A stretch of DNA of 64,000 nt from a bacterium UBP16_UBA6123 (GTDB lineage Bacteria > Muiribacteriota > UBA9980), in NCBI GenBank assembly GCA_002423385.1, contig DIVV01000217.1, positions 8,781 to 72,780 on the forward strand, written 5' to 3'. Shown here piece by piece: positions 1 to 49,721 of this stretch. The position numbers and the translations under genes are program-made. The number at the start of each line of letters is the position of its first letter. Within the stretch, counting starts at the first letter, position 1. The notes under the pieces are model-generated. The model did no database searches and was not told the DNA's origin. It saw only the letters and a program-made list of their open reading frames with translations.

Positions 1-1
1 G

Positions 2-3000
2 GTTCCGGCGACGCAGTTTGACGGCACTAACGTTAACAGCCGCGATCTTACATTAGCGGTTAACGCGATCGATGATCTTGCGCCTGTAACGCCCAATAAA
101 AATATAGCACAGACATTCACGGCGGTAAATATAATCGATTGTGCTCTGCCTTACTTACTTTCGATCGAAACTATCGATAATAATACCAATGGTAAAATTG
201 ATTATTTAAAGTATACATACAGTGAACCTGTAAAAGACACCACTTACGCTAACCGCGGCTCGAGTGTTACGACAGCCGGCAATGGCGCCGGTAAGCTCGG
301 TACGCCTGTTATTGCTTCTATAACGGCTGCGGGCACTCCGACGGGAAATGTCGTTGACGATGCAACCATATTTATGGTTGTCAACGAGAATACTGAGCCT
401 ACGGCCTATAATACCGGAGTGACCGGTAATTTTACTTCACATTCAACGCCTGAGCCTTATTCATTCGCTTCTAAATTCGGAACCACCGGCACTGGAAACG
501 GGCAGTTAACTGCTCCCCGTGATATTGTGGTAGATTCGGGTGGAAACATTTATGTAACCGAGTGGACTAATAACCGTGTTCATAAATTCAGCGCTGCCGG
601 TGTCTATATCGATAAATGGGGCGGCACTGTCGCTGGAACCGGTGATAAGCAATTCGACAGGCCTGATGGTATTGCCATCGATTCCGAAAATTGTATTTAT
701 GTTGCCGACAGATATAATCATAGAATACAAAAGTTCGATTCACAGGGTAATTTTATTACTAAATGGGGTAAAAACGAAGGAGCCGGCGGAGCAGGAGCGG
801 CAAGCGCCGTTGCGGGCGAGTTCAATCAACCGGTAGGTATATGTGTTGATAAAAATGACACTATTTATGTCGTCGATTATTCAAATAAGCGAGTTCAAAA
901 ATTTAATAAAAATGGCGGTTTCGTCGAAGCCGTTATCACTGCCGGCCTTACTGGCCCGCAAGGTGTGGCAGTCGATAACGACGGAAATATATTCGTCGCT
1001 GAATACGACGGCGCCGATGGTAATCAAATCAAAAAATTTAACAGCTCCGGCGTTTTTCAAACTTCATGGGGTGCGACCGGGGCCGCTGATGGTGAGTTTT
1101 CCGGCCTGGTTTATATCAAAGTCGATAAATTTGGCAATGTTTACAGTGGTGAAATCACCAATAAGCGCGTTCAAAAATTTACTAACGCCGGCGTTTTTGT
1201 CACAAAATTTGGAACGGGACCCGGAACCGACGACGGACAGTTTGCCGGTGTTATGGGCGTATTTGTGGATAAAAACCAGAATGTATATGCAGTGGATATG
1301 ACTACTAATAACCGTGTTCAGGTATTTAGAAACGGCATGATCAAAGATATCGCCGGTAACAACATGGTGCCGGTTTCCGCCTTCGCGCTTACCGATAAAG
1401 CCTGCCCTGTCGTGCTTAATACGACTTCCACCACTCCCGACGGCTGGTATAAGGCAGGTTCGGCTGTTAATGTCAGCGTGCAGTTCAGTGAAACTATGAC
1501 CGTTAATACAGGCGACGGCTCGCCTTATATTATCCTTAAAATGGACGGGCCCGGCCCGAACAGATGGGCCGTATATAACGGCGGTTCAACCACCGATACG
1601 CTTTCATTCGGTTATACTATAGTCGATACCGTTGGCACTGAGGATAATGCGGCCGACCTCGACTATAACGAAACTACTTCGCTTAAGTTGAACGGCAGTC
1701 TCATAACGGACGCCGCGCCTGTGGCAAATACGGCCATTGTAACGCTTAAAACGCCCGGCGCCGCCGGCTCGCTCGGCTTTAATAAAGCTATAGTTATCGA
1801 TACGATCAAGCCGACCGTAGTTGCGATGCATACGCTGGATACCAATGGCGACGGCATTACAGACGCGCTTGAAATTGAATTCAGCGAAAGTATCAAAGAC
1901 ACGGTTACCGCCGACTGGGTGCAGGATTGCAGCGTCACGCCCGCTAACTTCGCTATGGACGAAACCGGTCAGGTTGGCTGGGACGCATTTGACGGGTTCA
2001 GTACGACCGTTACTTCAGTGACTCCATTGAATTCGACTATTAACGATAAATATATACGCCTTACAATATCTGTGCCTGCGCTGTCTGCTATAACCACTAC
2101 CGGTATCATGGATTTTAAATACACCGCCGGCACTCTCGCCGACTGGGCCGGTAATATCATGGATACTTGCGCCGCGGCGGCCGCTGTCGATAAAGCACAG
2201 CCACGCGTTAAAAATATTACTTCGGCTAATGCCGACGGCAAGTACCGTACAGGCAGAGGTATAGAAGTAAATGTAGAATTCTCCGAAGTCGTCATTAGGA
2301 CCGGAACGCCGCGCATACTTCTTGAAACCGGTGCGACCGATAGATATAATAATTATTCAGCCGGTTCAGATACCAGTATTTTATCTTTTGACCCTTATAC
2401 CGTTCAAATGGATGATGAAAGCGCCGATCTTGATTATAAAGCGACGACCGCGCTCGAGCTGAATCTCGGCACCATCAAAGATAAATCGACCACTCCGAAT
2501 GACGCCGTTTTAACTCTTCCCGCTCCCGGCGCGGCAGGCTCGCTCGGCGCTAATAAAGCCATAATTATCGACGGTAAAATACCTCCTGTTGCAGCTGGAA
2601 TGGCTTTCACGCCGCTCGATTTTACGGGCGCCGATACCATAAAATGGACGAAAAGCTCCACGCCTCAGATAACATGGACCGCTGTCGGCGCAGATAATGG
2701 CCCTGCGGGTTATCCGGCTGACGGTAAAAAATACAGAATAATATTTACCAACAGCACTCAGGGCGTAGCCGATCCATTGGGCGCCGATCCTGATACGGTC
2801 GTCAACGACGGCACCAATCGTATAGATTCCGGCTGGATAATACCCGAAAATTATACGCCCACGCTCGCTAACGGCGAGTATCGCTATAGAATTTACGTAA
2901 AGGACGATGCTTCTACAACCTCGCCAACCGGTAATGGTAATGTTTCATTTACAGCTATTCAAAAAATGCGAGTCGATTTAAGCCAGCCTGACGCCGTACC

Positions 3001-6000
3001 GACGGCTAATGCTGAAATTAAAAAAAGCACGGGCTCCTTTACCAGCATTAACACATATTACACGAATCTCGATTCAAACTACATAAGAAGCACCATAGAT
3101 GTAAGTGATAACGGTAATCCTGCTTCAAATTTCAATACGGCGGCTAAATACAGGGTTATAATTTGTGAAAACGCCGATCCCGGAACCGGCGTATTGTTTG
3201 ACACAGCGCATCCGATGGCGGGTTCGGTTTTTGATTCCAACTGGATATCCTATGCAACCTTTAACGCCGGTTATAATTTCAATTTTGCCGCTAAGACCGA
3301 AACTTATTATAAATGGCGCGTTTACACTAAAGATAACGTCGGCAATGTTAATTATTCAACCGTTAAGGATGTTTACTACGATATACAAAAACCTTCCGAA
3401 CCTTCGCTAACATTGAAAGTTGCAGATAAACATTACGCTGATCCTTCCGATTTTTACTGGACTAAAAATAATCAGCCCGGCTTTACCGGCACCGTCGTTA
3501 CCGATACGCCAGTCGGGCTTGACGGTTCAGGGCTTCATTCCGCCGGCGCTTACAGGTTTTTGATCTACACCACGCAGACGCCTAAACCTGCTGACGAAGA
3601 TTCATTTACGCTTGTTCCGGCCAATGTGGCTTACGATACAGGTTGGGCGGCTTCTACGACCGATTTCGCCCCGGCCGCCGCTCTGGCTAACGGCACTTAT
3701 TACTGCCGCATCTATGTCCGCGATAACGCGGGTAATATAAATTATTCAAACAATACAAATGCGGCCGAAAGCTGTAATGCTAACGGTGATCTTATAATTA
3801 AAGTTGACGTCACCGCGCCTTCGATTAGTGCCAATAATTTTTCGCCGCATGCCTGGGTTGATTCTATTAATCCAACTTTCGGACAGGTAGTCGATAATTC
3901 ACCTACTTCAGAGCAGCAAAAAGCGGGTTCCGAAGTTACCAGCAGCGATGGCGCCGGTTCTGGCATCAAATCATACAGAATACAGGCTGGTGTTGGTTTC
4001 AGCGCGTGGGATATCGGCGTTGAATATGATTCCGGCATTATTTTAACCGGGTTGACTACTATGCCAGCGCGTACAACCAATGTTAACGGCGGCGACGCCG
4101 GGTTTATAACTAAAACTTTCGCCGACGGCAATTTAGTTAAATGGATGGTACGCATTGAAGATAATGTAGGCAATGTTCGGTATACACCTACACCCACACC
4201 GTTGGTTATGACCTTCGGTATCGAAGATCAAAATCCTAACGCAGTCACGCATAATTTCCCCGGAAACGATCTGTGGATAAGCAAAAATACATTCGATGTC
4301 AAATGGAACCCGGGTACCGATGTCGGAACTGCCGGAGCCGGCCATTATATCGTTTATGTTGCCAGTGCTGATTTTGCGGGCAGCGATCCGGCCGGCTGGA
4401 GTATTATACATAATTCGGCTAATTTAATTCCGACCGTGAATAATCCCGAATTATGGACCGTTCCGGTTATGGCGCTGGCGACTTATGAAGGCAAGACCAT
4501 TTACTGGAAGGTAAGATTTTACGATAAAGCGCTCAACTATACCGATTCAGCCACGACAACTTTTAAAATCGATATGACCAAACCGACCGTTGCGCTCAAT
4601 GCGCCCACCGTGTCCGGTGCCGAACAGGCGCCGCAGTCTATAACCGGCACTTCACACTGGGTGAATACACGCACGCCTAAACTTAACTGGAGCGCGCAGA
4701 CCGATCCTGACGGCGCGGCGGGCCAGCCGGGTTCGGGTTGGCAGGTTGCCGGTCAGTACGGCGCGACCTACGCTTATAAACTTGAGATATCGACCACTAA
4801 TTTCGGCGCTATTTTCTGGGATAACGGCGTTCTGGGCACCAATCCGCTCGATGTTAATCACATCATTCCCGCCGGCGCTTCGCTCGTCGATAGCACATTT
4901 TACTATTATCGCGTCCGCTTTTTCGATAAAGGCGGCCAGGCCGAAGCCATAGACGGCAATTTCAATACGACTCCCGTATGGAGCGTTAAATGCGATATAA
5001 CTAAACCGCAAAAACCAGTTCTCGTATGGCCGGGCGATGCGGCCGGAACCGAATGGATAAGCGCGGCGAAGCCGCTTCTGCACTGGAGAGGCGGCGACGA
5101 TAACGATGGCCTTGCGACTCCGAAACCCGGTATCGGCACCAAGGAAGTAATCGTGCAGATCGCTACAGATGCGGCGTTTGCCGATCTCGTTTTAAACAAA
5201 ACTATTAATTATACCGGCACGCCTGCCGCGCTTGACACCTATCAGATGGCCGCAGTCGATCCATCGCTTGCTGAAAGCACTTATTATTACTGGCGCGTTG
5301 CCGTTAAAGATAAATTCCTTCAGCAGTCCGACTGGTCCGATGTGTTCAGGTTCCGATGCGATTTCACGAAGCCGACGGCCGCCGTTCTCGACGGGCCCGG
5401 TAATATATATCCGCCTGGCAATACCAGCGAGGACGCATACTGGATAAATACACGAACTCCTACATTTAAGTGGACGCCGCCCGTCGATGTTGACGTAAGC
5501 GGCCAGTGCGCCGGTATGGCAAGCGTCGAAATACAGATTTCGAATAATGTTACCGTCGTAGGGAGCGATGTTACATTTAACTCTTATTTTTACACGAAGA
5601 AACTTATGAAGGGTGAACTGGCTTACGAAAATGGCGAATTCACCCTGCCCGACCCGAATAAGCTATCCGGTAACGGACCTTATTACTGGCGCGTTATTTC
5701 TTACGATAAAGCCAATAATCCAGTCGCTAATAAAACTATTTCCGATGTTTTCGTTTTCAGCATGGACTTCGTGCCGCCTGATTATTTTTCGATCAATCAC
5801 GAATACGCCGATAGCGGCAGCGTTAATTTAACTGTGCTCAGAATAAGGCCTGTGGGCCCGAATAAAACTACCGGTGACGCCTACGACGAAGTCGCCGATT
5901 TGTTTACGGGCGTCGCGACCGCCGGTATCAGTAAAATTCAATACTGGTACAGAAAACATCCTTCTACGACATGGACGATGGCCGGCTGGACCGATGAAGT

Positions 6001-30000: not shown

Positions 30001-33000
30001 CGATAATTATCCGACAAAAGGTTTCATAAGGTACCTCACTAAGATAATCGTCGATGGTATAGATAAAGAAGCTCTTAAAAACATATACAATATATCAACA
30101 TTTACTAATATATTGGCTAAAAATGGCGGCGTTGACGATGCCACGGATTATTTCGCTACTATAGCCCGCGGCCCCTGCGGATTTTTCTATAAATTCAGGG
30201 TTACGGCGATAGATTCCGAAGGTAATATTTCCAGTACTGGCGGTATATCACCGGTTAAAAAGGCCCGCGATACGCAGCCGCCGGTCGTCGATTTTGGATA
30301 CGGCTTCGCTTCGGATTATTCGGTAGTAATTACCAAATCGCAGTTAGCAACCGATATATGGGATAAATTCGTTATAACCGACGCCGTGCCGTCATCGGGA
30401 ATTGTAAAAGCTGAATGGTTCTTTGAAATCAGGGACTCCAAACAGACCTGGGATTGGCCGGCTAATAAAGATCATCAAACCATTACATATTTTAATGGTT
30501 CGGAAGCGGTAAGCGTTTCGTGCAATCGTGAAATAGTAACAAAAGCTCCGTGGTATCCGACGCGTAATAAGTTTGTTCGCGCCGGTACATATAGAATTTT
30601 TGTGAGGGCATACGATAAAGACGGAAACTATAATACTAACTATGCATGGCAGACTTATAACGTAGTAGCTTCCGATCCTTATAAGTTAGTTTTTGCCGAT
30701 GAATCGTCGTTAAAATTCGACGCTTTAGGAAGGCTTATCGATTACACGCCGTTGACGCGTGAAACTAACTATAAGGCGCCTTATATGAGAGCCGGCGATA
30801 CTAAAAAACTATATGTAGTATCCGCCGATAAAGATTTCGATATAGTAACTATCGAAGCTGATTCAGGTTTTGTGAGATTCGATACATCTAACGCCGTTAA
30901 AAATGGAAGTGATCCGATGGCGAGCGTCAGGATATATCATGGTCTTGAAAGTAATGGAATGACCACTACCGAAGCGTTTAAACTCAGCGACACTACTAAA
31001 ATGGCTATTTTAGAACCAGATGTTATCGGAGTTAATTCGATGTGGTCGAAGGGTTTTGTAACCATAATGTATTATGAAACCCGTGATATCAATACCGAAG
31101 ACGGTCGCAGCGATATGCAGATAATGATAAGTTCGCCTTCATTCTCGCAGAACGCTATGGCTGATATCGAATTAAGGCCGAATGTATTCCATCACCTTAA
31201 ATTCGATAACGAACCTCCGTTCACCGAATATAAAAAGCCTTATAATTTTAAAGCCGATGAAGGCGTTTTGATAAGTTTCGACAGGCGCGACGAATATGAT
31301 AACTTAATTTATTCGTCTGAAGATACCGAAGCGGTAGCGGTAAGTTTTATAAACGAACACACCTCTACTATTGATGGTAATATCATTAACAGATACAATT
31401 ATCATCATAACAACGGCAGGTTATACTGGAATTCAAAATCAGGTTCTAATTCTACTTTAAAGGCCGTAGATGACGAGGGCTGGTATCCATGGGAAGTCGC
31501 TTCCGCGGAAACCGAACCGGTCGGTATAGCTCTTGGCAGTTCCGGTAATTTTACAGACGGTCACGTATTTAAAATAGAAGACGCTATTTATTCCAGTTCG
31601 AATACTTCGAAATCCACCTACGTAGTTGACGGCACGCAGAGAATTAAACTGATATCGACTCTGGCGAGCCGGCCGGATCGCTATGATAAACATCAATTTA
31701 TAATCAACGGCAAGAAGTCGTCATTATGGTACAACGACACTTTCGCTACAGGTGAAACGCTGCTTACAGCTTATATCTACGCTTTCGATACGACCGAATC
31801 GCGGTTTGAAGTTGAAAAGCCTTTACAGCAGGTTGAAATTGAAGTGCAGCATTCGTCGGCGCCCGGCAGGCTCAAAATTACCGGTATCGGCACTTATAAG
31901 ACGATGGGCGGCACTCTGGTGACCGGCGGCCCGCAGGCGGGTTTATATAATAAATTCCACGTGGACGCTACTGACAGATGGTCGAATCCTATGGTAGAGA
32001 CGGGTTCATTTATGGCAGCGCTTAAGGCCTATCCGAAGGATGCGGAGCTGGTTAACAGGATGACCATATACTATGGAAATAAAAACAAATCAAGTTTTGT
32101 TTTTTATAACCTTGAAGGTAATATGGTCAATTCCATTAGAATAGCTGATGGCGGCGCCGATTTCTACTATCAGGATATGGTGGCTTCGCGCAATCTTACT
32201 GCGGATCGTAAATATAACAAAAATAAATCGACGGTATCGGTAATTGAAATTATCGATACGCGACTTACGGCCGGTTTTGAAAACGATTCGGAAGAAGTTG
32301 AATTGACCGCCGATCGTGGCGATTACGTTGTAGACAGTTATGACGTCAACTGCGATAGGCATAGATTCGGCGGAAAATTACCAGAACTCGAAGAAAGCGC
32401 CTATACTATAGACGATTTAGACGCCGCGCGTTTTTCTCTTGAAGTTAACGATGAAGCGCATAACTCGCTTGAAAGACTCGAAGGCATGATCGCTGAGACT
32501 ATCACCGTAAATCTTTTTGATAGATACGGCAATTTGTGTGATGCTTTTGGCGAAGGCACGAATGGCGTCGGCTTCGTGGAATCCGGTTATCCGACAGTGC
32601 TCATTAAAGACCGTCGGGAAGAAGATGAATACCGTACGCCGCATCCGCCTGATTTTGCGGGCGATGAAGAGATTAGCGCGGATACCATCCCGCTCGGCGA
32701 AGTGCCGTATACTCTCAACGGTATTGGAACTCCAGGTTTTGTAGAAGGCGTTCTGCGTCAGGATCTTTCTATAGAAACAAGCGGCGTTATTTTATTGTTA
32801 AAGTATAAGGCCGAACTGCCCTGCTCGTATAAAACATATAAGCCCGAAGGCACTTTAGAGGTTGCCGTCGGTCTTATAGAGCCCAAATTGTGGGGCGGCG
32901 TTTCGGAAACTTACTTCTATCAGGAGCTGGATAAGAAGATTATACACGATTATATCCGTGAGGCAAACACTGCCATAAGCGAAGGCAAAAATATCAAAGA

Positions 33001-33703
33001 AAGACATCCTGGATTCGTTTTGTCGGGCTGGGCCAAAGTCGGCACGGACCTGGACTTTGAAAAGTATTGCGACAAGCCGCATAATCCTGTGCCGCCGCAT
33101 GCGCTTCATATAAGCTGCACCTCGGAAATATGCGCCAACAGAGCGGAAATAGCTTTTGAACAGTACGATCTCGACGGAACTCCGCTTGGCACCGAAACTA
33201 AATTCAGTATCGGTATAGACCTTCTGGGTAATGTTTATTCTTACCAGAGCGGAATAACGCCTGTGCTCGATGCTAATAATAAGGCAACCAACTTCGATAT
33301 AACTGAAACTAATTACTATGAAAGTTCGGTTACGCCGCGTATGCATCCTAAATATAAAAATTTCGCTATAAAGCCGGGCGAAACGGTTTCACCGGGCGGA
33401 ACGCGCGCTAAAAACATCAACAGGTGGAAGCGCATATTCATACATTTTTATCCGCCTGTAGGAGGCGCGAACGGACTTATCGAAGGAAAGCGTTATATAC
33501 TTTATATGTATCCTAAAGAAGGCGCATATTCGGGTATGGCGGTTTATTTCGACGGTATTCAGCTACAGCGTTCCAAATACGCTACGCGTTATACGCATGA
33601 TAAAACACTCATCCTCGGCCCTTTAAAAGAATACGACGATCAGGGAAAAATACAGGATGTCGTAAAACCGTTAAACGAACTATTGCCATATCAGATGAGA
33701 TAG
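2..33703 (+). CDS. Giant (>11,109 aa; 5' end outside window) multidomain NHL-repeat / FN3 / PA14 / BNR surface adhesin-like protein
   Basis: ORF track gives 374..33703 (11,109 aa). Frame 2 also has no stop from nt 2 to 374, and the upstream translation (…TIDNNTNGKIDYLKYTYSEPV…) matches internal modules, so the true start is upstream of the window. Recognisable NHL (…GNIYV(A/T)D..N(H/K)R(I/V)QKF), FN3 (YYWRV.A.D.AGN.S), PA14, BNR (S.D.G..F/W) and PD40 motifs. The ORF ends at TAG 33701-33703. Confidence 0.9.
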   Translation, partial: VPATQFDGTNVNSRDLTLAVNAIDDLAPVTPNKNIAQTFTAVNIIDCALPYLLSIETIDNNTNGKIDYLKYTYSEPVKDTTYANRGSSVTTAGNGAGKLGTPVIASITAAGTPTGNVVDDATIFMVVNENTEPTAYNTGVTGNFTSHSTPEPYSFASKFGTTGTGNGQLTAPRDIVVDSGGNIYVTEWTNNRVHKFSAAGVYIDKWGGTVAGTGDKQFDRPDGIAIDSENCIYVADRYNHRIQKFDSQGNFITKWGKNEGAGGAGAASAVAGEFNQPVGICVDKNDTIYVVDYSNKRVQKFNKNGGFVEAVITAGLTGPQGVAVDNDGNIFVAEYDGADGNQIKKFNSSGVFQTSWGATGAADGEFSGLVYIKVDKFGNVYSGEITNKRVQKFTNAGVFVTKFGTGPGTDDGQFAGVMGVFVDKNQNVYAVDMTTNNRVQVFRNGMIKDIAGNNMVPVSAFALTDKACPVVLNTTSTTPDGWYKAGSAVNVSVQFSETMTVNTGDGSPYIILKMDGPGPNRWAVYNGGSTTDTLSFGYTIVDTVGTEDNAADLDYNETTSLKLNGSLITDAAPVANTAIVTLKTPGAAGSLGFNKAIVIDTIKPTVVAMHTLDTNGDGITDALEIEFSESIKDTVTADWVQDCSVTPANFAMDETGQVGWDAFDGFSTTVTSVTPLNSTINDKYIRLTISVPALSAITTTGIMDFKYTAGTLADWAGNIMDTCAAAAAVDKAQPRVKNITSANADGKYRTGRGIEVNVEFSEVVIRTGTPRILLETGATDRYNNYSAGSDTSILSFDPYTVQMDDESADLDYKATTALELNLGTIKDKSTTPNDAVLTLPAPGAAGSLGANKAIIIDGKIPPVAAGMAFTPLDFTGADTIKWTKSSTPQITWTAVGADNGPAGYPADGKKYRIIFTNSTQGVADPLGADPDTVVNDGTNRIDSGWIIPENYTPTLANGEYRYRIYVKDDASTTSPTGNGNVSFTAIQKMRVDLSQPDAVPTANAEIKKSTGSFTSINTYYTNLDSNYIRSTIDVSDNGNPASNFNTAAKYRVIICENADPGTGVLFDTAHPMAGSVFDSNWISYATFNAGYNFNFAAKTETYYKWRVYTKDNVGNVNYSTVKDVYYDIQKPSEPSLTLKVADKHYADPSDFYWTKNNQPGFTGTVVTDTPVGLDGSGLHSAGAYRFLIYTTQTPKPADEDSFTLVPANVAYDTGWAASTTDFAPAAALANGTYYCRIYVRDNAGNINYSNNTNAAESCNANGDLIIKVDVTAPSISANNFSPHAWVDSINPTFGQVVDNSPTSEQQKAGSEVTSSDGAGSGIKSYRIQAGVGFSAWDIGVEYDSGIILTGLTTMPARTTNVNGGDAGFITKTFADGNLVKWMVRIEDNVGNVRYTPTPTPLVMTFGIEDQNPNAVTHNFPGNDLWISKNTFDVKWNPGTDVGTAGAGHYIVYVASADFAGSDPAGWSIIHNSANLIPTVNNPELWTVPVMALATYEGKTIYWKVRFYDKALNYTDSATTTFKIDMTKPTVALNAPTVSGAEQAPQSITGTSHWVNTRTPKLNWSAQTDPDGAAGQPGSGWQVAGQYGATYAYKLEISTTNFGAIFWDNGVLGTNPLDVNHIIPAGASLVDSTFYYYRVRFFDKGGQAEAIDGNFNTTPVWSVKCDITKPQKPVLVWPGDAAGTEWISAAKPLLHWRGGDDNDGLATPKPGIGTKEVIVQIATDAAFADLVLNKTINYTGTPAALDTYQMAAVDPSLAESTYYYWRVAVKDKFLQQSDWSDVFRFRCDFTKPTAAVLDGPGNIYPPGNTSEDAYWINTRTPTFKWTPPVDVDVSGQCAGMASVEIQISNNVTVVGSDVTFNSYFYTKKLMKGELAYENGEFTLPDPNKLSGNGPYYWRVISYDKANNPVANKTISDVFVFSMDFVPPDYFSINHEYADSGSVNLTVLRIRPVGPNKTTGDAYDEVADLFTGVATAGISKIQYWYRKHPSTTWTMAGWTDEVNMVYEVVLPDSGVYDIGAKLFDRSGNVRGWDYVNDGQDNQGFFSSYHYRAGASDTNELRLRRIDQSIFNDWGNESPTSLLPADGGYSNWIVPPNDFIVHWSGQYYVSTAGIHTFRTTTDDGVRFYINDTIRINKWIDQGPTPYTTDPNLSVGWHKLDMYYYEKGGGATAKLEVDLPGGGTTYLPVQIPDVRSQNPDAIITDLRVDAQPPESKFPSLLSYTSDDIFNVAWKVEDTFEMTTDNKFKRNFEDLGLGGFKNKTANCADIKNTDGVGLARAYDNKRCLVVKKGTNNSVIDFFTPVDGSTTYNLSTYKYVSFAYCTSGPVKFDLIATITVNNRTGLYVIQTCTDPVIINKTVAENPGVGLGVAPWGLAEFSGKTPNFRNDENWHTVTINLYEQIKLKYGKVSADSALLRSVYFYGENPSDDAAIYIDNFSLSSKGMAQSNVDFRDGWHGKWTRWEDDTYSNTITSYNRDFEEAQDGSVYFFRGRAIDNAGNMEPATTAADENNYNPPRISIVKSPPDPPTNLRWQALDADGVTWVEARNSNANLTDPKNRKIRAAWDPPKDPSGINDYYIQVATSETFTTKSLVSAHTKWLTKAAPVFVINDSFNSGIDAATWPVNEPPFVNNKGAAYFDGANKDNKKLISKEFNLASYNDYSYAAFEFNAYFDSEDANDYMQVGIQYYDNNTSSWVTDKFLELKQTTQKWKFKSYVISHYIGKRIKIYVNVKADANSPNPKAGIDNVKIWVEKNCYEFTGIDQTIYYFRLLSKNNAGFSKPTTITDSYRSYFSTAKGDTIGTNETSVSPANWNSLNITNDKLVSDWGWGTTELMTVYKETNIFQDSFETGIKAANWPTVGSHFKYNNSIGCVENTTEIKTGGAADSILTEEMISKEFSLAGYDRATMECNVAYKFADVNTPNDRATISVEYKDGTNWIIDQSSYYDKNTSDQFSGASPNLTDWRSVSLNLSSSLGKTAVRIRIIVTANKTALNPMVYLDNFMLNAAKKVNSKIAETFYEDNFDTAISSDWTNGDTGVFKWQDSGYDKTNDGHVHIEATANVNNKKLTSKIFDLSKTYEGSAECLIYLDTNDSADSIKFAVEYKKGATWTEDQSETIKTNSVNWKKFELPFKDALGKSQVRVVFTAYTNNQPLKIGIDNFKMTRGSQYIFKQGDTTSSFYRREIKFSKYSKGKKITISTQGTANYSIYVNGGEILNGSDIATDEVKTFSNPYDFNFGDDDTCCVVTFKLTNTKFDEFNSPAISYKVTVDEKMKGIVDTTPPRPMNLVAYAKSGKNIDKKGNPSPFQYSKDFIVTTDSSDISGIRRCYYKVWSYTNAALGGKNAPASDVDYTGYIDFPATEKTDNTINIDVTVALATEDSSGRETCSVWFVDNNDINGFDYREEVLLRVDRQKPPKPVLLKFKADNGVEYVHTTIWDQKKPTFRWEKSVDPKFNNTHLSSATLMDESGTGHYQLQLTTTDDFAKSDLEVFIKNDETIFTQEVNFVPKDNLPMGDYKWRVRAIDSLTDTTELNFSAWSDTGELHLDFHPPDSYVLIPPPDGPYYRETDNVEFLPSVYFSIVQTDHANKWHKILSKMATGNTTTPVELTDLTLDDDKPRVDRDGNYIVFERKNADKSEICYMESSGENALILSRQTYDTKNLSSGDKIKYSGTVKATATGDCYQNYIFSTKEIALTSDQTGLYIEYDYYADTTGAGICGINIMYETTSVSYGVNGKWELRLDPAWPATVKPSADLGTAHHNKWQHRKIEIPSTLMINEVAIKTWEVSFENDTPGKSINAYYDNITITNSDGRIQNAIYSRGPLEFTQASDYYNNYENYSVSIEKERITNEEINIKVTKDKSPDISSNGRKVIFSSFDGYRRYRLKISEAPSGYTVKANILDDTAKGIFDSSMDNGDDFRIIWQNYDIATSKTVEVDLDRYLEKFTADEIIVWFKIQESAGWSGGLSNYYVEYGRNKVGLPPTDYTKVYKYYDDFNEYFDTSKWKAIGKAVWQNDGTVKLPDAENSASGNGFYSVDQFEPGIGVLMYMKTEFVTSEIRLGFSNSDFSNAFVFRSDDLDQYLQAYYEVSAKKAVWANDDRVTPSVYQWITHPTGLESIENNLVNYPSSAAFADDSGKFNTYALSWMKRSGDSVNKLRWYYNTDTFPDPSDSTPTYDLDSGSLPLYFMNKNSTSSVYIDKVIVRLLLEEEPTVEVDTNESTTTGRYELAVVNIERGNNDNGMKLITKNSDYDRINPRISPDGSKIVYMADVGDDQYDVYLIDTNGANNTKLTTYSANDKDPTFSPDGKKIIYLQDTDAVTIGAGTLDGTVSIIMTMNLDGTEQQWIETLTPSDKWNFRSPVYGPVGDRIYYARVSDSDNYEVYCLWARDSYLGKTIENSEDLVEDQISELDTAQDADYISIEGLKKIGWYYSKPSIKVYARDAEGHGARIYHNWTGDSLENNLYSASTTGVGLISYDVPYYMPDDHEYREQLSFLATDVNVHPSDEYFVDKQDSGNVELAHKLIPLIDDAAPASDIRIHIVDRDGATVGVDKDNRLEYTSETTLGSKNGYGGDNVLKTAEVSLLVAVDSKYSDWVYISNYETAPVGFHPEGAAPLGYETEPVSLDVSETSNIWLRSEKAAEYFYPELKWTLKDTAESGLKKIYTWYGSEGRVIKMVSEEIYLVTDIPLLYKERVYVTTNSNFALGTMGSNIRVENDSIYIEKANSGTYETPIMNLGSHITDLTKLYWISETGSDTTAVATKPVKSIQLRRGTTKNPSASSWTDWITVGDTMLEDATSEIDISMGVTGVFFELEDKTQGWPVGSDEVVYVQARFGLAGYLRITEIGFAYDRCADGLRAYDDDPNVDTAPVWFSVYRTMPRMTFGYNTKSSFDNPMNIRYYWKNSRGKSGGSVDEPLTLDYNSVLTPGSISVQLIGSTYQDYAGTKYNPSGTISVALDTAKTQEIVLDTGFVDGSFEITVWAIDLAANETTKETYVFYVNNSPISEPELDISRSTSNENKYMTNIPFPVYNNDLYSNIQFVDATMEVTGCVYRQISNRPDFKDVLWLKMKTSESNPISIWEFSTNTVGLFNYDITYDGYSTPYLNSVGNKEPDIYDGKKVVYARYKNGAGLILGPVTDEIILDRTMPATSLQGVTINDDEKLGVNGGEIVLQLTALHDFEDGTSSVTSRMGTVETAVIVSEKYNATYVNEFNYPDASLRLRYHSQDTGEIESGSYTSPVYLIGTHIKQSPLGRIRWTQVSDTDNSVEIWLRAIPDKGDGTPDFANAGDWNNGGAAHSKVGIGTTEVVAWQDMVIEGNTVSAFDYQFIQFRIKLTTKLPTGIYPKIDQIEFEFKRKSEMTSFDPINDSEGSSGYFENPVVVNIAKNNELDKIMYRWSYSASPGAVGAFTELIPTALLNVEKPKYILEVNQDRPSFLQWFSVSNTGDTEAVTHSKLFKFSLKGTKDSWVKILDNAAPFDDGIIMGPNVKLRLNPAVPGDPSLPGKIKISTNPEMTPLLAELEYTVSPSPVEEPITLKAPDGLSPALEGRVTVYAQFESSFGETTEIVSHSIMLDLNSPNAIHNPNANLYKIGDSEYADYSKGKFTNVTYADINGDSFEVKLGYKNDLVLDKFDALAANWDTPQGVAADSDSVFVADSVKQKLYKLSTQTLAVQSSKTGLGSPCGVEVDGDHVYVSDKIRHIVYKYRKSDFTKVGSFGVEYNAGSLENMLKAPEDIAIDPSRNYLYINDAGNKRIVKVSLEGLSYVADKPYTFFEKMDLVSGIAADDEAIILSNPGGHIIGKYDSNFASGTAQSLFGEYNSADDDDAHLNTPLQLGQDAGYIYAADSMNNRIVKMSYNLKYISSYGSASIPYLNNPVAVSGCNDRIFVSDLNNKRLVSLIKVLDEYELKATLGASDGSFSPPGQNKQDVPFRLYEPAMITSDTVYSYVADTKNHRILKVNNETMLVERQYGVTGVLGADTAHLSNPNAACPDFTDKTAGYIFVSDTGNKRVIKLKNNFGSFAYLTDSLSTGTPVSVDFAGGLCVDNSAVPAELYVANKTNIIVFNASTMLKIDEITALDGAFVNVTDVKYAGGYFYVVDNGRHQIYKVQKLRPVSAEIVKYNSLTTASAFAKGLNSPYSVAISPDYKDVFITDRQNYRVLHLDSSFNYKSNLGYNGIEGIGTVSVTLNKPMGVTCIKTPASKYILVTDTLNNRLIKVKYDTYSYSPYGEFASRVISLGNYVVPLADGVGGAGIKVETKYLHYDPVSTQGVELWVRTAPDRGDGNYDGRYWSKWEKFLLPNITDVSVNNSFINRRALSDTQFVQYKLILSTQDLRQTPSVRTTMFTYKRGCDGDLVTPSPHTGYYLTPLYGTLDHFNIVYEDENILSINYDQGNVHYKWNAGAEQVINELVYAVAEGVNTLTYYAKDIVGKVSPTASITYSIDTVPPVNPAVRVTETAPISTNSVNLDLTGVMDTNATPQLQMIVSEFADFNNTTWESYLTSKNYIFTGTLETGIKRIYAQFKDNAGQKTLKVWDTVRQKKASEAPVARIKSYEHGGKYDFERGSLNGTQVDRYGHVSLANDTFGFVSSLSDPNLSKPMGVAAYYNKTLKLFEIFVVNSQNHTINKFVSSDDTPNIIEFVASYGETGVAGSDEVHFNTPTGVAYDGTYVYVADSLNHRIVKLYNQSVPLNKMSYMCQFGNPASPGTGTSNLNTPFDVAWANGYLYISDSGNKRIVKLISNNMKYIAALNTEVNLRGLTSDGFYLYYIADKDVTRVKIDFGGSPLKYSVVNAGALVDPYFVQSDGLNLYIGDSGAKKVKMTALDFKIKSEYDQLVSIGGIASVQGLSTVYLFIAESSTNKLYKLNSVDTFYKSSGIYISEPLDIGSHVTKIDKVYYTVEGSSKTSAKFEMRVYPDKIDSLGEHSADLSYYEGENGWTVLDETGSEFPPSGFPTQPNSMTNFAGQYRYFVQYRATLSTIDKQVTPILKNFRVEFLKRGDGLSSNLLSLPGISIYADNSNDWPGWYVTPPSFSVSAAEWDLFKIKLTNSANMAGTEYSFTAGAKIPVITTVAPTTAGLGNFIFTEGTNSVTTWSKDISGNASFGETIEIYYDKTPPGKPEIILVSTAIDDSENQTYYVKTSKISFDIKVESSDGRPRRTVFSKNVSELTVPPSDSTKWFEMTDKTVAGHLIHKVIDYNLSEGLNIIYTKCSDQAGNISNVSYIKVHLDTTKPKSYNDRVIHASKEAFELSGRELDGVLIINDGLMMSKWLYNKHFDFSPALPNFVSSDSKYVYTCDTSITGPRIGVMGKFLDGIKATKNKFILGTTEILLKAPVAVIPFNDKLFVLDKDLHILFRVALDKHTNDPAKIIGNTMEVVFGTVNTPSTSPRGLNSPQGLSIFGTEEIYVADTLNNRVFKTNVNLTSITAQYGSVFASSIKSPVSVTVDQSNVFLAEKGLSGQNRVIQLDKNLNEIQSFVDSASGVLMDDIKAITSDGSYLYVSHKNGAEHRISKFIINPVISYLTYVKEFTIGGVASTFNDVRGVFADGEDIYLADTGNKRIIKTSSISWKYKSQFGVTGVPGNDAFHLNRPTALCSDASHLYALNYHPTYNGIVYKIRSSFIRDTENRYIFLETPTGVAATKDFVYLVNPGAGDDKKVLLIWGKDMQTRYPYDNSVVSPPLIYPIDICSYFDGSKYFVYIADYQSQKVYKYEEKLGQLLRVGESATGKLIRPIALSVDASGVYVLQGDSTVVKLTPDMQNVATSYGREIRFGITGVSGVDDFHLDPSPKLDLTGVTVYSKIVSTGNRVYVTDTNNHRVMKFDTFLNYKGEFGERGVPGTGDNNFNKPSGITIFAGDIYVNDSGNQRLVKTGNDAGVYTSAWVNIGSHVNKMNKMNYSGNIPSGSGLNIEVRFAYQKEGVPFMPDVTEWEALSQMADAPVQTPVNHPSPEINQYLQYRVSFLTDSSASVPRLNNIEFSYVKTADGEQDPDLTVASGLGYFKKFPEISLAMNEKGGLFYQWYRYNEVTNSEDAVDPTVPNTYNLFGINSVLPIPLVGGERKDGLYIMRYYSRDYVGNTESTNSYQYRIDTTPPKILEGKAVANGIAGYSFNKKEGAVDIYVRLDNNTDKLPDFKNGVITGKVRIISNSTSYDSNADFTAGSNFILTYYEGANVPVGQVWFTARWKINPNDYVQEGSDFQVYVSVKDPAGNEDENFAYGYANSKPALTLQIYGGAPNTRNQQIVHVSRQDFAKGTLKEVSVERSGTKGLVRLRTNADWGGLAQGTGTPAFSRPYAIASDGNYVYLSDINTNYLYRLTSSMTVLSTLTSVVSGAQGIACDGQFVYVADTGNNRILKLDSALSKIYAECLYTGVPDGIDGPVSIAVDSQRVYFTDMKKRIVVLNKSLGYVTESPVIIGGHTLSDRLRICTDGSNVYLLDRAASKILHLSSQLTYKSSYGSVGTGQDQFTDARDISTDSSYFYVTDNGNNRVIRLNIEEDGSLSFKEQFMGTGKVDPGKLITTVLSEINGVATDGYYTYVCETGKNRIIMTGDVAKKTEWNELAQFGVTNVSGNDNTHLKTPNGISFSGIYFYVADTGNDRVVMLDQELGYYKSSPAALYSSPKDLYYNEQGLYVLDANGISVSTDEVQTKAITRALAGLKGICGYDSINLLVTSGNDIIWLNGITLANIKNSMSYSGIPAPAALNNPTGLVTNGVDVYVCDTGNNRIVKFKIDKSIPGDHKLIYQGHYSQDVSGPLYISLSPDFIYFTNGGSFKNIVKLDLNLNFIAKYPGTGTMNTPTGITAFGQYCLVSENLGHRVVKSGISKFAGEVAVENSSDDSNVGHSNHSLALITSESDATSLPLVMYEKNGVIYHRLSKDEDGNVFDGQVADFNGTQFALASKANNAYVAYVDGGQIKFSTTANGKTFTSPNLVSGAYLGCSNPSITVDKDNFIYIAWESGGKINYNRSTLAVVNTNNALNPSLFAGTNIKQFESSADGIFSQVSLTASRETSAIHAVWIVTKDGFSTVKYGRGDTFSTIKDVKTFESGASDSVSGPKVAAGAANQLYIVWTGLDMQTDIKYVASIDAGVNFENVKTINTTKNGYQKNPSITIGLDEFGKDVAMVVWESTSNLTFYDEDIYFTKSSSGIFEANTRINTKVQSRAQTKPSVYSTPDGLIVFASWLDSSKSDSDHDVYCARFTDVSIYQLKGVYTSQIINLGTHVKDFDKISWVDDSQSKKSTKIYLNTRLCPDDGYGNPDTGSWSKWSSNYKNSNVDIQKDEEYSGMSPNLFENQYIQYKATITTRNKTITPNLYKVIVNFVRSGDSPESFKASGDIKFPLTHGGIINTNWLNDYKGPINGWYINPPRMTMTADKEAITYYDWKKLPASDVIVQTGAHLAYAPFVIPYVNPTTQSTPPVIVAGKSVRPVKAEGKLTLYEYSIDYYGNAEYEKTKEVYLDTIPPTNPEFGVTTKGYVVNSKKASITIDLSGDTSFGEDDAGGYDVFDIDSSKDNSVFAFSGTNEAFFVGTNSVGITNATIEIGTGINSGFVRFKGTSTSGIDRISMSKVLNPPINTSYYKNIFIRLRGDRSDLANPSSLPIGDYRVLVQSDSGRIYRTIPFRNSVQLKPVNATEEVVMMKLPVNERISMVSIELQDITSEVGTANKNMAVWVDWIAFTAAALNTPSPTLDLSGTNKTFTLSNISDNTTHEIILVRYDARGNYGIGSKTVVTPDRTEPPPPVVDLYMSDGGLNSGDSIEVVCQWKGVKDGHSKSYRYNVDVSITDAANKEDWKRLSIVPYEFGNKCSVTESVLIRNEAKNIYGMLDTVINKIYDTDYYGLKKLYIFYPETSADAAKWTDKWRYVSKGSYLGEYFKTRGFVQINSYADLAATMNASVLANDCVDTIIMLPFGTVPFNIVDPAVGYENTPLKKYLKKGGTITWLGDFPLEWTYNNLADYKSNSDPQNVNINPIFSNILNMTSQRVLSGPTFSDYMPRLGVTLQPEITDNGVRMLDIRAAYTSDALRAYSWLATYDDNYPTKGFIRYLTKIIVDGIDKEALKNIYNISTFTNILAKNGGVDDATDYFATIARGPCGFFYKFRVTAIDSEGNISSTGGISPVKKARDTQPPVVDFGYGFASDYSVVITKSQLATDIWDKFVITDAVPSSGIVKAEWFFEIRDSKQTWDWPANKDHQTITYFNGSEAVSVSCNREIVTKAPWYPTRNKFVRAGTYRIFVRAYDKDGNYNTNYAWQTYNVVASDPYKLVFADESSLKFDALGRLIDYTPLTRETNYKAPYMRAGDTKKLYVVSADKDFDIVTIEADSGFVRFDTSNAVKNGSDPMASVRIYHGLESNGMTTTEAFKLSDTTKMAILEPDVIGVNSMWSKGFVTIMYYETRDINTEDGRSDMQIMISSPSFSQNAMADIELRPNVFHHLKFDNEPPFTEYKKPYNFKADEGVLISFDRRDEYDNLIYSSEDTEAVAVSFINEHTSTIDGNIINRYNYHHNNGRLYWNSKSGSNSTLKAVDDEGWYPWEVASAETEPVGIALGSSGNFTDGHVFKIEDAIYSSSNTSKSTYVVDGTQRIKLISTLASRPDRYDKHQFIINGKKSSLWYNDTFATGETLLTAYIYAFDTTESRFEVEKPLQQVEIEVQHSSAPGRLKITGIGTYKTMGGTLVTGGPQAGLYNKFHVDATDRWSNPMVETGSFMAALKAYPKDAELVNRMTIYYGNKNKSSFVFYNLEGNMVNSIRIADGGADFYYQDMVASRNLTADRKYNKNKSTVSVIEIIDTRLTAGFENDSEEVELTADRGDYVVDSYDVNCDRHRFGGKLPELEESAYTIDDLDAARFSLEVNDEAHNSLERLEGMIAETITVNLFDRYGNLCDAFGEGTNGVGFVESGYPTVLIKDRREEDEYRTPHPPDFAGDEEISADTIPLGEVPYTLNGIGTPGFVEGVLRQDLSIETSGVILLLKYKAELPCSYKTYKPEGTLEVAVGLIEPKLWGGVSETYFYQELDKKIIHDYIREANTAISEGKNIKERHPGFVLSGWAKVGTDLDFEKYCDKPHNPVPPHALHISCTSEICANRAEIAFEQYDLDGTPLGTETKFSIGIDLLGNVYSYQSGITPVLDANNKATNFDITETNYYESSVTPRMHPKYKNFAIKPGETVSPGGTRAKNINRWKRIFIHFYPPVGGANGLIEGKRYILYMYPKEGAYSGMAVYFDGIQLQRSKYATRYTHDKTLILGPLKEYDDQGKIQDVVKPLNELLPYQMR
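455..1340 (+). other. NHL-repeat six-bladed beta-propeller (domain 1 of giant protein)
   Basis: Six repeats of type PRDIVVDSGGNIYVTEWTNNRVHKF / PDGIAIDSENCIYVADRYNHRIQKF / PVGICVDKNDTIYVVDYSNKRVQKF etc. Confidence 0.8.
1400..2580 (+). other. Ig-like / 'DxNGDGxxD' beta-sandwich modules (3 copies; one more partially visible in nt 2-373)
   Basis: Repeated ~125-aa units ending …ADLDY(N/K)(E/A)TT(S/A)L(K/E)LNG(S/T)(L/I)(T/K)D…TLK(T/L)P(G/A)PGAAGSLG(F/A)NKAI(V/I)ID, alternating with LDTNGDGITDALEIEFSE-type units. Typical of giant S-layer/adhesin proteins. Confidence 0.55.
2580..6110 (+). other. Array of ~8-9 fibronectin type III-like modules
   Basis: Each ~150 aa module begins D(I/V/M/F)T(K/A)P…TP(K/T)(L/F)(N/K)W and carries an FN3 F-strand-like motif: YRYRIYVKDDAS, YYKWRVYTKDNVGNVNYS, YYCRIYVRDNAGNINYS, YYYRVRFFDKGG, YYYWRVAVKDK, YYWRVISYDKANN. 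Confidence 0.6.
6250..6560 (+). other. PA14 domain
   Basis: …FIVHWSGQYYVSTAGIHTFRTTTDDGVRFYINDTIRINKWIDQG…WHKLDMYYYEKGGGATAKLEV matches the PA14 signature (G.Y.F….DDG..L.I.D..VI.NW….G…..Y.E.GG.A.L.L). Confidence 0.75.
7800..9480 (+). other. Three tandem ~165-aa MAM/lectin-like beta-sandwich modules
   Basis: Repeat units are (I/F)(N/Q)DSF(N/E)(S/T)GI.AA.WP……(L/K)(I/T)SKEF.LA.Y……(K/T)W……(R/K)I..(V/T)…….GIDN(V/F)K(I/M). The three copies are INDSFNSGIDAATWPV…GIDNVKIW, FQDSFETGIKAANWPT…YLDNFMLN and YEDNFDTAISSDWTNG…GIDNFKMT. Confidence 0.5.
12700..13130 (+). other. PD40 / TolB-like WD40-like beta-propeller repeats
   Basis: NPRISPDGSKIVYMAD…DVYLIDTNG, DPTFSPDGKKIIYLQD, SPVYGPVGDRIYYARVSDSDNYEVY correspond to the PD40 repeat consensus (sPDGk.iaf.s.r.g…iy). 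Confidence 0.6.
16870..18612 (+). other. NHL-repeat region 2 (~12 blades = two propellers)
   Basis: 12 successive NHL-like blades, e.g. PQGVAADSDSVFVADSVKQKLYKL, PEDIAIDPSRNYLYINDAGNKRIVKV, LNTPLQLGQDAGYIYAADSMNNRIVKM, LNKPMGVTCIKTPASKYILVTDTLNNRLIKV. Confidence 0.7.
19730..20545 (+). other. NHL-repeat region 3 (one six-bladed propeller)
   Basis: FNTPTGVAYDGTYVYVADSLNHRIVKL, LNTPFDVAWANGYLYISDSGNKRIVKL and four further blades. Confidence 0.7.
21925..23545 (+). other. NHL-repeat region 4 (~11 blades)
   Basis: LNSPQGLSIFGTEEIYVADTLNNRVFKT, FNDVRGVFADGEDIYLADTGNKRIIKT, …TGVTVYSKIVSTGNRVYVTDTNNHRVMKF, FNKPSGITIFAGDIYVNDSGNQRLVKT. Confidence 0.7.
24790..26385 (+). other. NHL-repeat region 5 (~12 blades = two propellers)
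   Basis: FSRPYAIASDGNYVYLSDINTNYLYRL, GAQGIACDGQFVYVADTGNNRILKL, LKTPNGISFSGIYFYVADTGNDRVVML, LNNPTGLVTNGVDVYVCDTGNNRIVKF, MNTPTGITAFGQYCLVSENLGHRVVKS. Confidence 0.7.
26440..27520 (+). other. BNR/Asp-box (sialidase-like) beta-propeller region
   Basis: Asp-box-like motifs S-x-D-x-G-x-(T)-F/W: STTANGKTFTS, SIDAGVNFEN, SSADGIFSQ, SSSGIFEAN. Interspersed hydrophobic strands (IYIAWESGG, LYIVWTG, AMVVWEST) are typical of BNR propellers. Confidence 0.55.
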
Positions 33704-33834: not shown

Positions 33835-34503
33835 ATGAAAACATATAACGGGATTAAATTGCTGGGTTACCAAAGCGGGCGCCGGGGCGTGCTGCTGTTC
33901 GGTATAATAATGGTCATAGCGATACTCGGCATAGTTTATTTCAAGGGATTCACGCTTTTTAGCACCGAAAACAGGCGCGCGAGGGAGCATGAACTCGATT
34001 CGAGGCTTTCACAGATGCGCAAAGCGCTGGATATGGCTAAAAATAATGAAAATTTCAGGTCTGATTCAGATTTTGAAGGTCTCGACGAAAAAACTTCTTC
34101 GGATGACGTTCAGAAAAAATTAGTGGCCGCGCTTCGCAACAGCTCTACTTATCAGCGTAATAAAATGGATGCGAAGTCCGTTTATTTAAGGCAGGAATTC
34201 GACGCCCCGATGCTCGAGGTTGACGTAGATGAAAAACTTAATGTGGGATGGCGTATTGCCGTCAACCGCGTTAATTCGTCGAGCTTCGAAGGCGATAATT
34301 TCATGAAAATTTACAGGATTACGGAACAATCGAACGTGGCGCAGGTTAATCAATGGTGGTTCGCGACGACCACCGAAAACAGCCTTATTTCAATCAGAGC
34401 TGATTCCGATAAACCTTCTGAGTCCGATTATCCAGGTCAGCGCGACACTGCCGGCGCGAAGGGCAAATACGGCAAAAACGTACTGCAGATGAAAGTGAAG
34501 TAG
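33835..34503 (+). CDS. Hypothetical membrane-anchored protein (N-terminal TM helix, charged/coiled periplasmic or extracellular domain)
   Basis: GGAG 8 nt upstream of ATG. N-term RRGVLLFGIIMVIAILGIVYF is hydrophobic. No recognisable catalytic motif. It lies directly downstream of, and co-oriented with, the giant gene. Confidence 0.5.
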   Translation: MKTYNGIKLLGYQSGRRGVLLFGIIMVIAILGIVYFKGFTLFSTENRRAREHELDSRLSQMRKALDMAKNNENFRSDSDFEGLDEKTSSDDVQKKLVAALRNSSTYQRNKMDAKSVYLRQEFDAPMLEVDVDEKLNVGWRIAVNRVNSSSFEGDNFMKIYRITEQSNVAQVNQWWFATTTENSLISIRADSDKPSESDYPGQRDTAGAKGKYGKNVLQMKVK

Positions 34504-34533: not shown

Positions 34534-34986
34534 ATGAGCGGCGCGTCGTATAAAAGGCGGTATTTAATGAGCTATTTATCTAAAGTCGAACTGCTTGAAA
34601 TTTTATATGATATGGATTCGCCGTCTAATGAAGGCTCGCTGCTCGTTCATGAAAGCAGGAGCGGCGAAGAGCTTTTATGCTGCGACGTCGATTGCGGCGA
34701 TCATCTTGATTTATTTAAAATAGGCGGGCATTACGAAGCTTTTTTCTCCACGTTCGGAATGATAACTCACGCAGACGAAGAAAACGCCGTGCCGAAAGTC
34801 GAAAAAAACCAGTTTCGCGGCGTAACGCGGTTAAACGCCACTATCATAGATATCAGGGATAACTGGTATATATGCGACGCCGGTTTTTATGTTTACGCCA
34901 TGTCGATAACCAATATAAGCGGCCTTAAAAAAGGCGACAGGGTAACGATAGCCGGCGGGCTCAGAGTCGATCTTATCGTTAAATAA
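34534..34986 (+). CDS. Hypothetical protein (150 aa)
   Basis: ORF follows the previous gene after 30 nt. No recognisable motifs. Convergent with buk, 10-nt gap, with a small palindrome taaact-atc-agttta at the junction. Confidence 0.4.
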   Translation: MSGASYKRRYLMSYLSKVELLEILYDMDSPSNEGSLLVHESRSGEELLCCDVDCGDHLDLFKIGGHYEAFFSTFGMITHADEENAVPKVEKNQFRGVTRLNATIIDIRDNWYICDAGFYVYAMSITNISGLKKGDRVTIAGGLRVDLIVK

Positions 34987-45579: not shown

Positions 45580-45586
45580 ATCTGGA

Positions 45587-48890: not shown

Positions 48891-48936
48891 TAGATAAATT
48901 ACTTATCAATCTTAAAAACAAGCGATGTGAAACGAT

Positions 48937-49710: not shown

Positions 49711-49721
49711 AGGACGTTAAA

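Follow-up and report, generated by a model that had tools for sequence, protein, structure and literature searches.

The window analysed here, a stretch of 64,000 nucleotides (nt) of contig DIVV01000217.1 (assembly GCA_002423385.1), is dominated by a single giant gene on the plus strand (2..33703), of which it holds the 3′ 11,233 codons and the stop. Two small genes follow directly on the same strand and form a conserved three-gene cassette with it. Frame +2 is open without interruption between nt 2 and nt 33700; its stop lies at 33701-33703 and its first ATG at 374. Given the base composition of the region, the probability that a random codon is a stop is 0.058, which corresponds to ~647 expected stops and to a probability of ~1e-289 of finding none. 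Each of the other frames of the window carries hundreds of stops, and the next longest open stretch anywhere is 617 amino acids (aa). A sequence-only reading of this DNA had described a single very large gene containing only short antisense and off-frame open reading frames (ORFs), and the longest of those nested within the giant frame indeed reaches 253 aa.

The gene recurs in independent metagenome assemblies of other samples, where its orthologues are colinear with the window copy and end in the same C-terminus (...LLPYQMR*). The relative L088 (JGI 3300037047, Ga0377239_000430) is 93.7% identical over 3,292 aa with 2 gaps, and L086 (Ga0209212_1001814) is 77.4% identical over 4,641 aa in one high-scoring segment pair that corresponds to window aa 6537-11233. 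More distant orthologues are L087 (Ga0208665; 51% over 1,838 aa), L090/L091 (Logan ERR3438386/91; 51-53% over ~3,300 aa) and L092 (SRR22184555; 51-53% over ~3,300 aa). Short orthologous fragments are present in NCBI metagenome-assembled genomes (MAGs), namely P0001, P0002, P0008, P0009, L093 and L094. The ratio of nonsynonymous to synonymous substitution rates is 0.077 against the orthologue L003 at the 5′ end of the window and 0.073 against L085 near the 3′ end of the gene. Against L086, the proportion of nonsynonymous differences (pN) is 0.13 and that of synonymous differences (pS) 0.77, which is saturated, with similar values in each of sixteen 300-codon tiles. This pattern indicates that the giant gene is under strong purifying selection.

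A frame of this length could also be an artefact, either an assembly chimera or a decaying pseudogene that is open by chance. Such a reading could draw on the metagenomic origin of the window, on its missing 5′ end and on the appearance of an orthologue in two pieces in one public MAG. In that Wallbacteria MAG (GCA_041441465.1, JASDSY010000018.1; L089 ~970-1090) the annotation shows two separate genes, one of 8,732 aa and one of 2,957 aa, in place of a single orthologue. The split is, however, a scaffold gap filled with N and bordered by duplicated sequence, and two other assemblies (Logan ERR3438386 and ERR3438391) continue unbroken there; once the gap is discounted, the giant protein of this 51%-identical relative comes to ~11,700 aa. 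Tandem Repeats Finder detects zero DNA arrays inside the giant ORF and the internal repeats of the protein are just 23-47% identical to each other, so that repeat collapse or mis-joining by the assembler is unlikely. Colinearity with the window extends over 3,300-4,600 aa in four independent assemblies, and with pN/pS at ~0.17, synonymous sites saturated throughout, the vanishing probability of a stop-free frame and no repeats to mislead an assembler, an artefact is exceedingly improbable. Since the independent assemblies are colinear and purifying selection extends throughout, a chimera or a dead gene is excluded for practical purposes, and this is a real, conserved single gene, as the sequence-only reading had held. 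Its G+C content is 0.47-0.50 in the first 6 kb (window 1-6000) against 0.41-0.45 in the remainder (8000-34000), a shift that is probably an effect of the amino-acid composition of the module types; its relative synonymous codon usage correlates with that of 15 flanking genes at only 0.66.

The window holds an estimated 86% of the gene, its 3′ part, and the 5′ end would lie some 1,200-1,800 codons upstream. In the 94%-identical relative L088 the gene lies wholly within a 125.6-kb contig and is called at 13,067 aa, which bears out the earlier suggestion that the protein is longer than the window reveals. By this comparison the total length of the window gene would be ~12,400-13,100 aa, that is, about 13,000 residues or ~1.4 MDa. 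The orthologue L003 matches window aa 1-230 at 73-74% identity, in its own interior, and thus places the first 124 codons of the window within the gene, again as had been supposed. Its frame opens 1,183 codons upstream of the equivalent of window nt 2, and its start, ~1,177 codons upstream of the matching interior, is an ATG that follows the Shine-Dalgarno sequence GGGAGGAAG and begins MKKICKFFLFLLCIIFLIFFLIEDSHA/AFTGEYYYY. This N-terminus consists of MKK, then ~19 hydrophobic residues, then the small-x-small site SHA-A; its charged n-region, hydrophobic core and small-x-small site identify it as a predicted Sec-type signal. The signal is followed by a PA14 domain (44.6 bits), Ig-like modules of the Big_13/Big_3_3 types and an extra NHL propeller.

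Two side observations concern this end of the gene. An EF-hand/dockerin-like loop, D-x-N-x-N-G-K-I-D, is encoded at window 176-202 (aa 59-67) in a module ending ...TYSEPV; the window part has a single copy of the loop, the first 1,200 aa of L003 about four. These EF-hand-like modules are possibly calcium-binding spacers concentrated at the N-terminus. Upstream of the orthologue start, L003 (MAG CAYQWL01) carries at 113-2093 an IS21-type pair, consisting of a rve/Mu-transposase-like IstA and an IstB ATPase, and between this pair and the start of the giant gene lies a gene for a 454-aa protein without a family match.

The domain content of the protein was established with Pfam on 3,750-4,233-aa and 1,000-aa tiles, with PDB sequence searches and with an NHL blade hidden Markov model (HMM) built from its own repeats. 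NHL blades are the dominant recognisable element. They score 33-112 bits in 6 of the 11 1,000-aa tiles (PF01436, gathering score 20 bits), and the blade HMM finds ~33 of them in 11 groups of 1-6, which would make up about 7-9 propellers. PDB NHL domains match down to E=5e-41 (the NHL domain of TRIM71), along with the PknD sensor and teneurin-like proteins. The first propeller, six-bladed by the blade HMM, spans 497..1345 (aa 166-448, plus strand, as are all features of the protein); it gives the TRIM71 match and a Pfam score of 111.8 bits. Pfam, PDB and blade HMM locate the other NHL propellers at 16859..18622 (aa 5620-6207, ~8 blades), 19721..20563 (aa 6574-6854), 22097..23569 (aa 7366-7856) and 24782..26395 (aa 8261-8798). 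Propeller blades of another kind, the PD40/TolB-like type, lie at 12623..12904 (aa 4208-4301), with 41.1-47.5 bits around aa 4278-4300 against a gathering score of 20.9 (PF07676) and a PDB match to TolB at E=6.8e-5.

Other modules lie between the propellers. A PA14 domain at 6272..6538 (aa 2091-2179) scores 32.0 bits against a gathering score of 24 (PF07691) and matches the PA14 domain of RsgI3 in the PDB at E=1.7e-9, as well as a Lap adhesin. An Ig-like module of the Rha78A N-terminal type (Ig_Rha78A_N, PF25788, 57 bits) at 5210..5359 (aa 1737-1786) belongs to a run of ~130-aa repeated beta-sandwich modules covering aa ~1490-1930. Three related ~170-aa modules at aa 2592-3158 are plausibly jelly-roll-like. 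The last of them, a MAM/jelly-roll-like module at 9068..9475 (aa 3023-3158), reaches 16.6-18.3 bits against the MAM cut-off of 26.4 (PF00629), and matches to InhA-like_MAM and Reelin subrepeat B are weak. Two families named in the sequence-only reading are missing: fn3 (PF00041) has no match at E<=0.05 in any tile, the closest being Ig_Rha78A_N and sub-threshold Big_13, Big_7 and Pur_ac_phosph_N, and BNR (PF02012) has no Pfam match at E<=0.05 and zero S.D.G.[ST]W motifs in the protein. Its NHL, PA14 and PD40 assignments thus hold above their cut-offs, those of fn3 and BNR fall, and that of MAM stays below threshold. The description of the whole as a mosaic of recognisable domains was overstated, as the bulk of the protein, including its last 2,434 aa, matches no Pfam, NCBIfam, PHROGs or PDB sequence. 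Scans with Pfam, NCBIfam and PHROGs yield no enzyme, toxin, peptidase, glycoside hydrolase, dockerin, SecA-like, RTX, Rhs/YD or haemagglutinin domain. The protein has an acidic pI (4.97), little Cys (0.55%) and abundant Thr, Ser, Asp, Gly and Asn.

Known anchoring and sorting signals are likewise missing. The window part contains no transmembrane (TM) segment (maximal 19-residue hydropathy 1.58), and the C-terminus ...LLPYQMR is not hydrophobic. No LP.TG motif is found, and nothing above threshold for the type IX secretion system, PEP-CTERM or SLH appears with NCBIfam and Pfam in the last 2,233 aa. There are no GG.G.D repeats anywhere in the protein and no HemolysinCabind match. Motif searches and family scans therefore agree with the initial view that no known C-terminal anchor or RTX signal is present. 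An RTX adhesin exported by a type I secretion system (T1SS) was considered and rejected on the last two grounds and on the Sec-type N-terminus of the orthologue.

The C-terminal 2,434 aa (26399..33700) are conserved in all orthologues and match no family in Pfam (2025 copy), NCBIfam or PHROGs, and no PDB sequence. A 7-sequence profile of this part with its orthologues gives 0 PDB matches at E<=5. A stretch at 29114..30331 (aa ~9705-10110) is orthologous to the part of P0001 and P0002 that carries PF27344, "MJECL34", an uncharacterised Pfam domain with an alpha/beta secondary-structure pattern; the putative assignment is carried over from precomputed Pfam matches on P0001, P0002 and the L089 gene mapped to the window. 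Conservation is uniform along the protein, with no hypervariable tip, and C-terminal identity is 59-65% in the 51%-identical orthologues and 78% in the 77% orthologue.

The two genes of the tail accompany the giant gene in all eight contexts examined. Partner 1 (33835..34503, plus strand) encodes a 222-aa protein with one predicted N-terminal TM helix (aa ~18-40, hydropathy 2.81) and an extracytoplasmic domain. Partner 2 (34534..34986, plus strand) encodes a Cys-rich protein of 139-150 aa with the motif LCCDVDCG and neither signal peptide nor TM segment; its true start is probably at 34567. It has no family match in Pfam, NCBIfam or PHROGs, and copies at the same position are 74% identical in L086 and 46% in L087. 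In 8 of 8 contexts (the window, L086, L087, L088, L089-91, L092, L093 and L094) the 222-aa gene is preceded immediately by the 3′ end of the orthologous giant gene and followed by a 139-168-aa gene, with identities of partner 1 to the window copy running from 96% down to 51%. Intergenic spacing within the cassette measures 131 nt for the window and 37 nt for L090, and the genes beyond the cassette differ between lineages. The partner 1 family comprises 20 detectable homologues, none of them below 51% identity, and where an organism is named it is Candidatus Wallbacteria. For neither partner, nor for the C-terminal third of the giant protein, were relatives detected beyond their own clade in the searches made, all of them word-filtered.

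Partner 1 is named a GspG/PulG pseudopilin in the JGI record of its 96%-identical copy. This identity was rejected: the match is 15.6 bits (E=0.012) against a TIGR01710 cut-off of 88.85, and the sequence reads VLLFG after RRG, with an invariant Gly in place of Glu5. An AlphaFold2 model of partner 1 from 18 sequences has a predicted local distance difference test score (pLDDT) of 47.6 and contains, at low confidence, only a long N-terminal helix (residues 17-68, 52 residues). Two further observations touch the DNA around the tail. Straight after the giant-gene stop, at window 33683-33738, the heptamer ATAGTGT is repeated 5.7 times, and a near-consensus sigma-70-like match, TTGCCA-17-TATAAT, overlaps the stop itself. 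The first part of this element is kept in the close relatives L088 and L086 and not in distant ones; the element may serve both partner genes as promoter or operator. Distant relatives have further conserved genes 3′ of the cassette (L089 11456-14810; L092 11269-14682; L093 2161-5357), namely a gene of 421-480 aa, a 410-aa protein with a weak MreB-like_C match and a protein of ~200-240 aa. The first of these carries DUF3048 and DUF3048_C in L089 and L093, with no family on record for the L092 copy; in the window lineage, acetate-kinase and PTA genes stand in place of this set.

Two small genes directly 3′ of a giant gene whose ~2,400 C-terminal residues have no assigned function could suggest a contact-dependent toxin or predation effector, the more so as predation has been proposed for Omnitrophota giants. 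The protein would then be a giant stalk with a C-terminal toxic or lytic domain, and the small genes would supply immunity or accessory functions, as in contact-dependent inhibition (CDI), Rhs and polymorphic toxin systems. The C-terminus is not hypervariable, however, and the downstream genes diverge in step with it, which is the opposite of a toxin/immunity pattern. Partner 1, a membrane protein with an external domain, is also unlike typical immunity proteins. Because neither the C-terminus nor the downstream genes are hypervariable and no Rhs/YD, haemagglutinin, toxin, peptidase, glycoside hydrolase or other lytic domain was detected, such an effector is very unlikely.

The best explanation of the locus, with a probability of roughly 0.6, is that the giant protein is exported and acts as a long, multivalent binding or adhesion fibre; the role in adhesion or predation that the sequence-only reading mentioned for proteins of this size remains an inference. 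PA14 domains bind carbohydrates elsewhere, and NHL and PD40 propellers bind proteins or other ligands. In this model, a Sec signal peptide at the N-terminus of the newly made protein would direct its export through the cytoplasmic membrane, and no segment of the protein itself would span a membrane. It would consist of about a hundred mostly beta-rich modules in a string, which include a PA14 domain at the N-terminus, spacers of the Ig-like and jelly-roll kinds, 7-9 NHL propellers, one propeller of the TolB/PD40 type, another PA14 domain and a lineage-specific C-terminal part of ~2,400 residues. If extended, such a string would by our estimate reach several hundred nanometres. The fibre would lie on or around the cell and bind glycans, surfaces, polymers or neighbouring cells. 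Both small genes would work with the giant protein, and the single-pass membrane protein may hold the fibre on the cell or aid its export.

The same export signal, lack of a TM segment and acidic beta-rich modules would also suit a structural component of the envelope, such as an S-layer-like protein, a sheath or a matrix scaffold, which would build or space the envelope and not bind foreign targets. Uniform conservation along the length without a hypervariable tip, and one copy at a conserved locus with a membrane partner, can be read in this way as well. No SLH or other cell-wall-binding module is present, though, and Wallbacteria are listed among the diderm Terrabacteria with SLH-based OmpM tethers (bioRxiv 10.1101/2021.05.31.446380). 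PA14 domains and NHL propellers are typically ligand-binding, and S-layer proteins are usually abundant and far smaller. A structural role is accordingly unlikely, and a binding fibre is the preferred account.

Several points weigh against the fibre model. The 5′ end of the window gene itself was not recovered, a metagenome scan with aa 1-153 having matched nothing, and the signal peptide is seen only in the 73%-identical orthologue. Since its hydrophobic core is long (~19 residues), the L003 signal might remain uncleaved and act as a membrane anchor. Some two thirds of the giant protein is without a family assignment, and neither a ligand nor an enzyme domain points to a specific function. 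AlphaFold2 modelling of aa 9700-10899 from 5 sequences gives a pLDDT of 28.8 and no fold-level annotation of the C-terminal part, and no usable fold is available for partner 1. The link to the partners comes from conserved gene order in one clade only. No secretion system by which a 1.4-MDa protein might cross an outer membrane adjoins the giant gene.

The remainder of the window carries ordinary housekeeping genes, including those for an acetate/butyrate kinase-like protein, PTA, ferredoxin, an aminotransferase, UvrC, a sigma-54 activator, a peptidase M55, ribosomal protein S1, an oligopeptide-binding protein and DAHP synthase. Scanning the window for Rfam families and tRNA genes returns nothing. 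At 44998-50936 lie genes for a TetR regulator, a TolC-like outer-membrane efflux protein (OEP), an HlyD-type membrane-fusion protein and a MacB-type ABC ATPase and permease. This set looks like an efflux-type pump; it was rejected as a dedicated secretion system for the giant protein, being MacB-type, 11 kb from the giant gene and missing from the neighbourhood in distant relatives. A minus-strand cluster at 58538-63687 encodes a GT2 glycosyltransferase, a PMT-family (dolichyl-phosphate-mannose type) glycosyltransferase, a YkuD L,D-transpeptidase, a 317-aa protein of unidentified family and a HARE-HTH/Mrr_cat protein. In some bacteria, PMT-type enzymes glycosylate exported proteins.

The named orthologous fragments (53-86% identical) and the named partner homologues are all labelled Candidatus Wallbacteria or "uncultured bacterium". 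The host thus appears Wallbacteria-like, a phylum assignment that rests on the source labels of the orthologues, and it is not Omnitrophota or candidate phyla radiation (CPR)-adjacent, the groups with which the sequence-only reading had proposed a comparison. A diderm envelope would fit, because a TolC-like OEP gene is present in the window and Wallbacteria are counted among the diderm Terrabacteria. Proteins identical to those flanking the giant gene occur in Logan SRR5323154 and in JGI 3300001567 and 3300002498 (record prefix TOLCLC), the last two of which we take to be methanogenic hydrocarbon-degrading enrichment cultures.

Proteins of more than 10,000 aa are known in many bacterial phyla and are commonest in Omnitrophota; Wallbacteria are unmentioned in that survey (West-Roberts et al., 2023, bioRxiv 10.1101/2023.11.21.568195). 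NHL-rich giants termed "tandem-repeat scaffold" proteins, with as many as 37 NHL copies, are the subject of a 2026 preprint, which also reports a 9% minority topology with a signal peptide and no TM helix (bioRxiv 10.64898/2026.06.07.730766). Surface and attachment proteins form the second main bacterial class of huge proteins (PMC11573180). The protein described here resembles the Omnitrophota tandem-repeat scaffolds and signal-peptide-only giants in its length of more than 10,000 aa, its origin in uncultured bacteria and its many NHL repeats (~33 blades against up to 37 copies). As in those giants, HMMs leave most of the sequence unannotated, and a recognised minority of them likewise combine a signal peptide with the lack of TM helices. 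It differs in its Wallbacteria label, in its lack of TM helices, SecA-DEAD, C39, dockerin and TSP3 domains, in its own conserved two-gene tail and in a C-terminal third without detectable outside relatives. The Archaeovorin/Dockerin type of Omnitrophota giant was rejected on this basis, the window protein having no TM helices, SecA DEAD-like domain, C39/S8 peptidase or dockerin/TSP3 by Pfam and hydropathy (maximum 1.58). The comparison with Omnitrophota giants suggested by the sequence-only reading stops short of the TM helices and SecA-like domains reported there.

Another comparison is offered by the giant RTX adhesins of the LapA, MpIBP and SiiE type, which are also megadalton beads-on-a-string with Ig-like spacers and a PA14-type ligand-binding module. 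These lack an N-terminal Sec signal and carry a C-terminal RTX/T1SS signal and an N-terminal retention module, whereas the window protein has no GGxGxD repeats and a Sec-type start in its orthologue. Ebh and other giant Gram-positive surface proteins, together with cyanobacterial SwmB, are similarly exported proteins of ~10,000 aa with repetitive modules and a proposed surface function. In Ebh the C-terminus carries a membrane anchor and the tandem repeats are nearly alike, and SwmB is highly repetitive, while the modules of the window protein are 23-47% identical and no anchor is found. The six-bladed NHL propeller fold is shared with TRIM71, the PknD sensor and teneurin, each of which has one propeller in a protein 10-50 times smaller; the YD shell, kinase and RING contexts of those proteins are not present here. 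By its sequence, the giant protein thus resembles signal-peptide-only scaffolds and giant adhesins and appears to belong to none of the defined families. The class of very large exported multi-domain proteins is known; particular to this lineage are its first record in Wallbacteria (the literature searched contains no giant protein from this group), a clean topology with a signal peptide only, the orphan C-terminus of ~2,400 aa with its MJECL34 stretch, and the three-gene cassette. On present evidence nothing found lies outside known biology, and no new kind of biology is indicated.

Few proteins exceed 10,000 residues, and a function has been established for almost none of them. The giant gene described here is a cleanly validated case, because several independent assemblies, a recovered start and end, and purifying selection support it. 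Because this gene comes in fragments or is divided at scaffold gaps in public MAGs, its frequency is underestimated. A tentative and rather improbable extension is that the cassette encodes an undescribed three-part surface system, so far seen in the Wallbacteria clade only, made of the giant protein, a pilin-like membrane protein and a cytoplasmic Cys-rich protein. The membrane partner would anchor or export a signal-peptide-only propeller fibre of 1.4 MDa that has no known secretion or sorting signal, and the C-terminal part, including MJECL34, would represent a new activity by which the fibre attaches to other cells of methanogenic consortia, whether partners or prey. With a signal peptide alone, the protein represents the simplest topology and sharpens the question of how megadalton proteins that bear no recognised signal for secretion or anchoring are exported and retained by diderm bacteria, and the conserved two-gene tail provides a concrete, testable handle on both steps.

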